A stretch of DNA of 54,525 bases. Origin: a virus. The translations under genes were made by a program, and so were the position numbers. The notes below the pieces were generated by a model. The model saw only the letters and a list, made by a program, of their open reading frames with translations. It made no database searches and was not told the origin of the DNA. Location: UHGV virus genome UHGV-0179380. The stretch is one strand, 5' to 3'. This document shows, piece after piece, positions 16,430-17,027 of the stretch (positions are counted from its first letter, which is position 1; every line of letters begins with the position of its first letter).

Positions 16430-16513
16430 ATGAAAAACGTAAACTACCGCCCCAATGAACATGAACGCTATGCGGACTTCATCGAAGAAATGTTAAAAGC
16501 ACTTAAAAAATAA
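16430..16513 (+). CDS. small ORF (27 aa)
   Basis: MKNVNYRPNEHERYADFIEEMLKALKK with ggagg SD. Confidence 0.35.
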   Translation: MKNVNYRPNEHERYADFIEEMLKALKK

Positions 16514-16581
16514 ACAATATGCGTGTATAACTAAGTTAAAGGAAGCATTTGGTAAATTAGAATAAGCGGTAGGAGTTGATT

Positions 16582-16995
16582 ATGAAACTGTTAGCAAGAA
16601 TGGCACTGACTGTGATTGCCGCACTCGCATTTAACGCGAACGCTAACGAGGCCATTAGCATTAACTGTGAAGAAGTGGCAAACCATGTAGCCGCATATCA
16701 CGACATGATCAAAAAAGAACCTGCCGCGCCAGCAATTCTTTTTAAGGCAATTGATAAAAAATTTGAAGGTAAACCAGTTTATGCTCGTTGGTTTAATTAT
16801 GGCCTTGTAAACGAGGCCGCTGTAGGCGTAGTCTTTGAAAATAATAGCGAAATAAAAAACAGGATAGCAAACGAGTGTAAGGCAAATAAAGTTGCTTTCG
16901 CGGAAAGAATTTTTAATGAAGGCGGCGCGGGTGCAAAAAATCACGCAATTGTAGATTTGGGTAACGGTTTTATTGATATTGTTAGAATCAAATAA
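16582..16995 (+). CDS. secreted/periplasmic protein (moron)
   Basis: N-terminal signal peptide MKLLARMALTVIAALAFNANA; AGGAG SD; own terminator. Confidence 0.65.
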   Translation: MKLLARMALTVIAALAFNANANEAISINCEEVANHVAAYHDMIKKEPAAPAILFKAIDKKFEGKPVYARWFNYGLVNEAAVGVVFENNSEIKNRIANECKANKVAFAERIFNEGGAGAKNHAIVDLGNGFIDIVRIK

Positions 16996-17002
16996 GATGA
17001 AC

Positions 17003-17027
17003 GCCCGGATCTACCGGGCTTTTTCTT
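17003..17027 (+). terminator. rho-independent terminator of secreted-protein moron
   Basis: gcccgg-atcta-ccgggc then tttttctt. Confidence 0.7.

Follow-up and report, generated by a model that had tools for sequence, protein, structure and literature searches.

A putative moron cassette for exchangeable envelope-targeted cargo, oriented backwards in the late tail operon of an mEp021-like coliphage

The window is the virus genome UHGV-0179380, a stretch of 54,525 nucleotides (nt) that belongs to the mEp021-like ("mEpimmI") type of temperate coliphage. Between its DUF6246 and tape measure genes lie two genes on the plus strand: a micro-open reading frame (micro-ORF) of 27 amino acids (aa) and a cargo gene for a 137-aa precursor. 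With a probability of about 0.6, positions 16273-17024 form a self-contained moron cassette that sits backwards in the late tail operon and serves as a dock for exchangeable envelope-targeted cargo. A preliminary description of 16430-17027 had proposed a secreted-protein moron inserted between a tail chaperone gene and the tape measure gene. The parts of the cassette and its flanking genes are as follows.

16292-16307, plus strand: CRP-like left half-site TGTGATCTATGCCTCT, TGTGAT core invariant in relatives, centred at about -60.5 from the predicted transcription start
16302-16359: long dyad GCCTCT-ATT-TTATACAAAATGG-loop-CCATTTTGTATAA-AGAGGC, with arms at 16310-16326 and 16337-16353
16325-16353, plus strand: candidate sigma-70 promoter TTTCCT-17-TATAAA, read from the sequence, predicted start at about 16360
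16394-16406, plus strand: small leader hairpin CCGG-ATTAA-CCGG in conserved alignment columns, followed by the Shine-Dalgarno region
16416-16421, plus strand: AGGAGG Shine-Dalgarno sequence of the micro-ORF in a purine-rich region, 8 nt upstream of the ORF
16430-16513, plus strand: micro-ORF of 27 aa, MKNVNYRPNEHERYADFIEEMLKALKK, recognised by selection and its Shine-Dalgarno sequence
16570-16575, plus strand: TAGGAG Shine-Dalgarno sequence of the cargo gene, 6 nt from the ATG at 16582
16582-16995, plus strand: cargo ORF from ATG to stop, 137 aa plus stop
16582-16644, plus strand: signal-peptide coding part, residues 1-21, predicted cleavage between ANA and NE
16645-16995, plus strand: mature domain plus stop, 116 aa, 12.8 kDa, isoelectric point (pI) 7.0
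17003-17024, plus strand: intrinsic terminator GCCCGG-ATCTA-CCGGGC followed by TTTTTC (hairpin and five T residues), from a hairpin scan and folding
13930-16272, minus strand: tape measure protein gene, left flank of the cassette (PF20155, 1e-47)
17011-17697, minus strand: DUF6246 gene, right flank of the cassette, 228 aa (PF19759, 5e-55; phrog_791)

The minus strand is the direction of the late genes, namely tail tube, DUF6246, and tape measure, and the plus-strand unit splits this operon, as had been proposed. The site was compared among DUF6246 homologs gathered from IMG/VR without reference to the cassette, which comprise 45 close relatives (72-99%) and 27 distant relatives (25-43% identity). 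In 20 of the 27 distant relatives, and also in a Castellaniella prophage, the distance from the DUF6246 end to the tape measure start is -61 to +77 nt; a scan of a genome collection with one genome per species returned two Castellaniella loci only. All 45 close relatives carry a gap of 640-1275 nt with reverse-strand genes. The guanine-plus-cytosine content (GC) of the cassette is 38.5% versus 50.4% for the tape measure gene and 48.0% for DUF6246, and its GC at third codon positions (GC3) is 0.34 versus 0.46-0.53 for the flanks. Because DUF6246 abuts the tape measure gene in most distant relatives and GC is lower than in the flanks, the cassette is added DNA, "more DNA", which supports its classification as a moron in the original structural sense. 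By comparison of the loci, the site is a conserved cargo hotspot that is filled in every close relative. The moron reading of the preliminary description thus holds in structure, with added DNA, lower GC, and a predicted terminator of its own, and the single insertion gives way to a hotspot.

The cargo census covers 15 annotated records, 17 loci found through the micro-ORF with a degenerate DNA pattern, and the 45 loci found through DUF6246. It counts at least six types of cargo, unrelated to each other and all lying between the same pair of borders, listed here with counts among the 45 DUF6246-found loci where available.

137/138-aa family of this window: 14 of 45 loci
VasI/TagO-like type VI-associated lipoprotein (PF11319, 1.7e-15): 17 of 45 loci
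124-aa lipoprotein
Pair of 35-aa and 100-aa membrane proteins
116/119-aa signal-peptide family
165-aa signal-peptide protein

A few other cargos occur besides these, and combinations vary (A+124, B+100, TagO+106, and others). Nearly all cargos are envelope-targeted, being signal-peptide proteins, lipoproteins, or membrane proteins.

Both borders of the exchanged segment can fall inside functional signals. On the right, all cargo types regain homology at CCGGGCTTTTTCTTGCT, which is the 3′ half-stem of the terminator together with its T-run; on the opposite strand, this same sequence encodes the last codons and the stop (17011-17013) of the DUF6246 gene. The complementary 5′ half-stem is supplied by each cargo itself, so the stem is maintained across unrelated cargos. 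Retention of the 5′ half-stem in unrelated cargos is good indirect evidence that termination at this point matters. The terminator RNA folds with a free energy (dG) of -16.5 kcal/mol (z = -4.6), and the cassette is accordingly predicted to have a terminator of its own, as the preliminary description had it. On the left, the border position varies among loci. Between mEp021 (cargo family A) and strain 127 of Escherichia coli (E. coli), which carries family B, identity is 94% in the signal-peptide coding part (66 nt), and beyond this point the two are unrelated; in this alignment, one recombination joint falls exactly at the signal-peptide cleavage site. Other non-homologous cargos share similar signal peptides of the form MKRLxK...A[FLV]NANA. 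Taken across the aligned loci, the exchange of cargo is bounded by the upstream dyad on the left and by the 3′ half-stem of the terminator on the right.

The cargo gene of the window begins at the ATG at 16582, where the position of TAGGAG fits; an alternative TTG start at 16576 would give 139 aa. The length of 138 aa given in the preliminary description counts the stop codon, and the protein has 137 residues. Its N-terminus, MKLLARMALTVIAALAFNANA followed by NE, carries K2 and R6, an 11-residue hydrophobic core with a mean Kyte-Doolittle value of 2.5, and A-N-A at positions -3 to -1, with no lipobox Cys. This pattern is retained in all 15 homologs despite sequence drift. The product thus has, by its sequence, the n-region, h-region, -3/-1 residues, and lack of a lipobox that characterize a Sec-exported protein cleaved by signal peptidase I, and the earlier assignment of a signal peptide to the larger protein is borne out. 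Homologs P0003 and P0004 contain Asn-Ala repeat expansions (NANANA and NANANANA) in the c-region of the signal peptide, directly before the predicted cleavage site, which suggests slippage in an AACGC(N) repeat.

Between the cargo gene and its mEp021 counterpart, the proportion of synonymous differences (pS) is 0.74, near saturation, and that of nonsynonymous differences (pN) is 0.17. By this measure, the cargo ORF is a real gene under strong purifying selection. An antisense open frame of 117 aa (16591-16944, minus strand) overlaps the cargo gene; it is open in most relatives and broken in LSU61. The substitutions fit the sense frame, and the antisense one is probably a codon-complement artefact.

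The cargo protein belongs to a narrow family. A word search for homologs covered 5.8 billion proteins and yielded no more than 17 clusters; each is at least 67% identical and comes from E. coli or Caudoviricetes. The family was found at the DUF6246/tape measure site only and is confined to E. coli prophages from gut isolates. The 137-aa protein has zero matches in Pfam, PHROGs, NCBIfam, and PADLOC, and a sequence profile search of the PDB returned nothing below E = 0.5. An exhaustive profile search with the family additionally found one truncated copy and weak matches to EF-hand-like repeats. Specifically, residues 39-75 weakly match the EF-hand repeats of P0019 and P0020, two long, eukaryotic-looking repeat proteins. 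EF-hand membership was rejected: the loop DKKFEGKPVYAR has K at position 3, E at 5, and R at 12, so that the calcium ligands are missing, and Pfam gives no EF-hand match in the protein.

Structure prediction gave a confident AlphaFold2 model (predicted local distance difference test, pLDDT, 82; predicted template modelling score, pTM, 0.80). The model consists of a detached, low-confidence N-terminal helix that corresponds to the signal peptide, five helices, and a C-terminal β-hairpin. Foldseek comparison of the model with the PDB and BFVD found nothing below E = 0.1, so the structure prediction proposed at the outset supplied a fold and no relatives. As modelled, the protein is an orphan family and an orphan fold. 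The mature protein is predicted to be soluble and helical. Residues C29 and C99 are invariant among the cargo homologs, and the pair probably suits a periplasmic disulfide.

The micro-ORF, a 27-aa frame already noted in the preliminary description, leads the cassette in the window and in 29 of the 45 close relatives, and is missing from the other 16. Among 14 distinct homologs, its variable sites at codon positions 1, 2, and 3 number 5, 3, and 17, pN/pS is 0.06, and all indels are in frame. The remaining five frames over the same region contain stops or have pN/pS above 1 in relatives; the minus-strand ORFs that some GenBank records place there were rejected on these grounds. On this substitution pattern, the micro-ORF is a real gene under purifying selection. 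It is a separately conserved micro-gene of 27-29 aa that most annotations miss, and its product matches no family in Pfam, PHROGs, NCBIfam, or PADLOC. Loci L020, L030, and L034 (and L010) have a purine-rich insertion of about 95 nt in the 5′ leader, between TATAAAG and the leader hairpin.

Upstream of the micro-ORF, the dyad is the one universal element. All 45 close relatives have it, and no other upstream element is shared by all of them. The dyad measures 22 base pairs; its arms are 94% complementary and invariant in relatives, its loop is variable, and it folds at -24.6 kcal/mol (z = -9.3). It sits directly upstream of the ribosome-binding site of the tape measure gene. The preliminary description had noted a motif triplet here and suggested that it supplies promoters for both the moron and the tape measure gene. 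The motif ATACAAAATG indeed occurs as direct copies at 16284 and 16313 and as an inverted copy at 16341 (span 16284-16350); of these, relatives retain the second and the third but not the first.

A promoter for the cassette is required because selection is seen on its ORFs, and it should lie within 16273-16429 because the nearest other plus-strand unit lies at a distance of 2.3 kb, with the tape measure gene in antisense between the two. The best candidate is a conserved TATAAA with a weak -35 in the dyad. The candidate matches 8 of 12 consensus positions in the window, and most relatives have TTCACT-17-TATAAA, with 9 of 12. The candidate -10 lies within the right dyad arm. In relatives that lack the micro-ORF, and likewise in L111 and L112, the cargo begins about 50 nt after TATAA(A/G)G. 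For the tape measure side, the promoter suggestion was set aside, as the -35 in the mirrored arm matches 2 of 6 positions by eye. A promoter facing the tape measure gene is also unnecessary, because late transcription antiterminated by Q can reach that gene.

Other assignments for the region were considered and set aside. The CRP site has a good left half-site and a right half that matches 2 of 5 positions, and it is a weak lead only. The dyad was not retained as a nut site, since boxA/boxB-like elements lie elsewhere. The consensuses for LexA, IHF, sigma-54, and other host factors gave no convincing match. The minus strand carries a near-complete second promoter-like module (GCGTGATCTA ... 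TATACAAAATGG - loop - CCATTTTGTTATAAAGAAG) at about 32140-32210; the 90-aa ORF downstream of it (31837-32109) is one of the small genes that lie between Q and the lysis genes. With up to 2 mismatches allowed, a motif search found no copy arranged like this second module in mEp021.

If the cassette works as proposed, host RNA polymerase would start at TATAAA within the dyad (about 16360), and the micro-ORF and cargo gene would be transcribed together from a promoter supplied by the phage backbone. The transcript would end at 17003-17024, so that no antisense RNA would run into DUF6246 and the tail genes, while Q-modified late transcription would cross the cassette on the other strand and reach the tape measure gene. 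The 137-aa precursor would be exported by Sec and cut after Ala21. The mature 12.8-kDa protein, probably with a C29-C99 disulfide, would then act as a small helical periplasmic binding protein.

By analogy with known envelope-acting phage proteins, the 137-aa protein is probably a periplasmic accessory or exclusion protein. Its role could be to shield a lysogen or infected cell, at its envelope, from newly arriving phages or from other attack, in the manner of superinfection exclusion, a tentative assignment that falls somewhat short of an even chance. The locus would represent a compact, well-bounded exchange place for envelope-acting proteins, and thus a source of candidate exclusion, immunity, and conversion factors. 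It is also a clear case of recombination borders within functional signals, namely a cleavage site and a terminator stem.

Small exported phage proteins active at the envelope include T4 Sp, P1 Sim, T5 Llp, and phi80 Cor. The cargo protein resembles these, and the mEpimmI lipoproteins Lpp021 and Lpp010, in being small, exported, and envelope-acting; it has no sequence or fold similarity to them, and the PHROG search, which includes a "spackle periplasmic" family, assigned the protein to none. Passages of PMC11893012 report that mEpimmI phages have been shown to exclude through lipoproteins. The exclusion lipoprotein of mEp021 is gp81, which has a gene of its own at another place in the genome.

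HK97 gene 15, the founding example of a moron, also lies between the tail chaperone and tape measure genes, and its product gp15 acts in superinfection exclusion (PMC3594210). The two share a genomic position, an envelope-located product, and a temperate coliphage host genome (PMC3594210). However, gp15 is described as a small inner-membrane protein, whereas the cassette product is predicted to be soluble and periplasmic, and the cassette is antisense to the tail operon and lies in an exchange hotspot. The 137-aa protein shows neither the sequence homology nor the membrane-anchored topology of a gp15-like protein, with Pfam and PHROG searches negative; the lack of relation rests on the zero matches of the PHROG search, and the gp15 sequence itself was not compared directly.

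The classical lambdoid morons (lambda bor and lom, and those of HK97 and HK022) likewise consist of extra DNA between late genes, with lower GC, their own terminators, and envelope products. Unlike these, the promoter region, the half-terminator, and sometimes the signal peptide are fixed phage backbone here, only the cargo is exchanged, and a conserved micro-ORF of 27-29 aa often leads the unit. Phage accessory and defence hotspots resemble the site in their fixed position, conserved core flanks, and unrelated cargo mixed in combinations. They differ in that the cargo here is almost all envelope-targeted, without PADLOC matches, and that one border lies in signal-peptide coding sequence and the other in a terminator stem. 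Morons are already known, and the general picture of them is unchanged by this cassette; what is new is the site as an exchange hotspot with borders in a signal peptide and a terminator stem, often with a conserved micro-protein. The passages of PMC11893012 that match term searches make no mention of the cassette locus.

Several points weigh against this account. A sigma-70 consensus scan found no plus-strand match upstream of the cassette, and the -35 of the candidate promoter matches only 3 of 6 positions in the window; of the earlier promoter suggestion, what is left is the inferred candidate on the cassette side. The exclusion role is by analogy only, because no protein of known function resembles the cargo in sequence or fold. 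Where both traits are known, in five phages, cargo type also shows no correspondence with the receptor:

mEp021: cargo family A, receptor OmpA
mEp010: cargo family A, receptor LamB
mEp515: cargo family B, receptor OmpA
mEp044 and mEp554: cargo family C, receptor LamB

Finally, the dyad arms are copies of a 10-mer, TACAAAATGG, which also marks the early control regions of the phage. The cassette may therefore be phage-regulated and not constitutively on in lysogens.

This last point leads to the first of the rival explanations, in which the cassette belongs to an early or delayed gene set controlled by the phage. The dyad would be an operator for the CI-like repressor, a helix-turn-helix (HTH) protein in the Cro position, or another regulator, and the protein would be made during infection or induction and not in the quiescent lysogen. 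The 10-mer is overrepresented, with 28 copies at up to 1 mismatch versus 5.2 expected in the window and 18 versus 3.3 in mEp021. Its sites are mostly intergenic, often paired (inverted or direct), and located at early-control regions and at every junction of the tail operon with a reverse cassette. The exact copies and three regulatory genes of the window are placed as follows.

12882, 16314, 16340, 32176, 37976, 45593, 46436, and 49484: exact copies of TACAAAATGG
45715-46362: CI-like repressor gene
46669-46923: gene for the HTH protein in the Cro position
35724-36452: Q-family late antiterminator gene

The copy at 46436 is upstream of the repressor gene, and another directly adjoins the -35 of the strongest early promoter (TTGACT-17-TATATT, 45591-45563). 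The position of the candidate -10 inside a dyad arm is the geometry expected for repression. These features suggest that TACAAAATGG is probably the site of a phage-encoded regulator. However, no operator is defined for the mEpimmI group in passages of PMC11893012, the arrangement of the 10-mer is inconsistent between places (inverted, direct, or single), and the motif could equally belong to a promoter or bind a host factor. Accessory genes expressed in the lysogen typically have low GC and, as here, hypervariable envelope cargo. Phage control of this kind is a possibility of some weight, on the unlikely side.

A broader proposal, and a doubtful one, joins such control to the exchange of cargo. 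The site would be a "secretion-ready docking station", in which the backbone stays fixed and recombination swaps only mature envelope-acting domains. The backbone would supply a regulated promoter/operator dyad, an optional conserved micro-protein, the signal peptide, and the downstream half-terminator, with the dyad in a phage-wide TACAAAATGG regulon. If true, this regulon would include the immunity-region promoters and the other reverse tail cassettes, so that immunity and all accessory cargo would answer to a single phage regulator.

The cargo may alternatively benefit the host by lysogenic conversion and not by exclusion, for example as an immunity protein or inhibitor against type VI effectors, colicins, or lysozymes, or as a colonisation factor. 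The commonest alternative cargo, the VasI/TagO-like lipoprotein, is type VI-associated (17 of 45 loci), and the cargo of the window is small, predicted to be periplasmic, carries two invariant Cys residues, and occurs only in gut E. coli prophages. However, it bears no likeness to a known immunity or inhibitor family (PADLOC, Pfam, and NCBIfam without a match), no cognate effector gene lies nearby, and the idea draws purely on context; this reading is unlikely.

Less probable still is a role of the cassette in phage development, whether in tape measure function and tail assembly, DNA ejection, or the timing of lysis from the periplasm, with the micro-ORF as a core regulator of the tail genes. 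Three features are consistent with such a role: in every close relative the cassette is tightly linked to the tape measure gene, the micro-ORF is highly conserved, and the dyad lies directly upstream of the tape measure ribosome-binding site. However, most distant relatives with the same DUF6246-tape measure pair lack the cassette, unrelated proteins replace the cargo, and the micro-ORF is missing from 16 of 45 loci. The mEp021 homolog, gp63, does not bear the virion-structural label that the annotation gives on the basis of mass spectrometry (PMC11893012). The notion of a non-coding spacer in which both ORFs are open by chance, a view that could appeal to several deposited annotations that skip the micro-ORF or place minus-strand ORFs there, is already refuted by the substitution patterns of both genes (pN/pS 0.06 for the micro-ORF; pS 0.74 and pN 0.17 for the cargo), the in-frame indels, and the good Shine-Dalgarno sites, and its probability is close to nil.

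The wider context of the moron cassette is that of its phage group. Passages of PMC11893012 describe the mEpimmI phages, in 2025, as temperate, Nus-dependent, non-lambdoid siphophages, and report them to be equally common as lambdoid phages in human gut E. coli. Over 755 bases around the cassette, MagusPhagus (an Escherichia phage) and a prophage of E. coli 09-00049 are 98% identical to the window. The first 240 or so of these bases are 86-93% identical to mEp021, mEp010, mEp044, mEp515, mEp554, and about a dozen E. coli chromosomes.

The right-hand neighbour had been called a tail chaperone gene. The G/GT tail assembly chaperones are marked by a programmed -1 frameshift and a C-terminally extended product, and the DUF6246 gene (17011-17697) contains no X_XXY_YYZ slippery heptamer and no open -1 or +1 alternative frame. 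A PDB sequence search found no relative of the DUF6246 protein, and its Pfam family has no assigned function. Because DUF6246 lacks both a frameshift signal and a PDB sequence relative, "tail chaperone" is a purely positional label, and DUF6246 (phrog_791) is used in its place. Should DUF6246 nevertheless act as the tail assembly chaperone, it would do so without the customary G/GT frameshift.

Further features of the late operon and the control regions lie outside the cassette.

17742-18218, minus strand: tail tube gene (PF06199)
17709-17723, minus strand: GC-rich hairpin and T-run GGGGCCGTTGGCCCC TTTCTTTT, between the tail tube and DUF6246 genes, within the late operon
12866-13898, about 11292-12400, and 4467-4715, plus strand: three further reverse cassettes that break the minus-strand tail operon
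13136-13390: protein with a ParE-like toxin domain (PF24732), in one of these three cassettes
About 37860-37890 and about 46520-46560: boxA-like GCTCTTTAA and, after it, short hairpins whose loops are purine-rich

The hairpin and T-run at 17709-17723 imply that the tape measure and later genes depend on antiterminated transcription. The boxA-like sites are probably the nut sites reported for the mEpimmI group; they adjoin copies of the 10-mer, yet are distinct from them. A CATTTTGT/ACAAAATG motif stands at each junction of the three further reverse cassettes, and the version of the cassette at about 11292-12400 found in relatives encodes a KilAC antirepressor.

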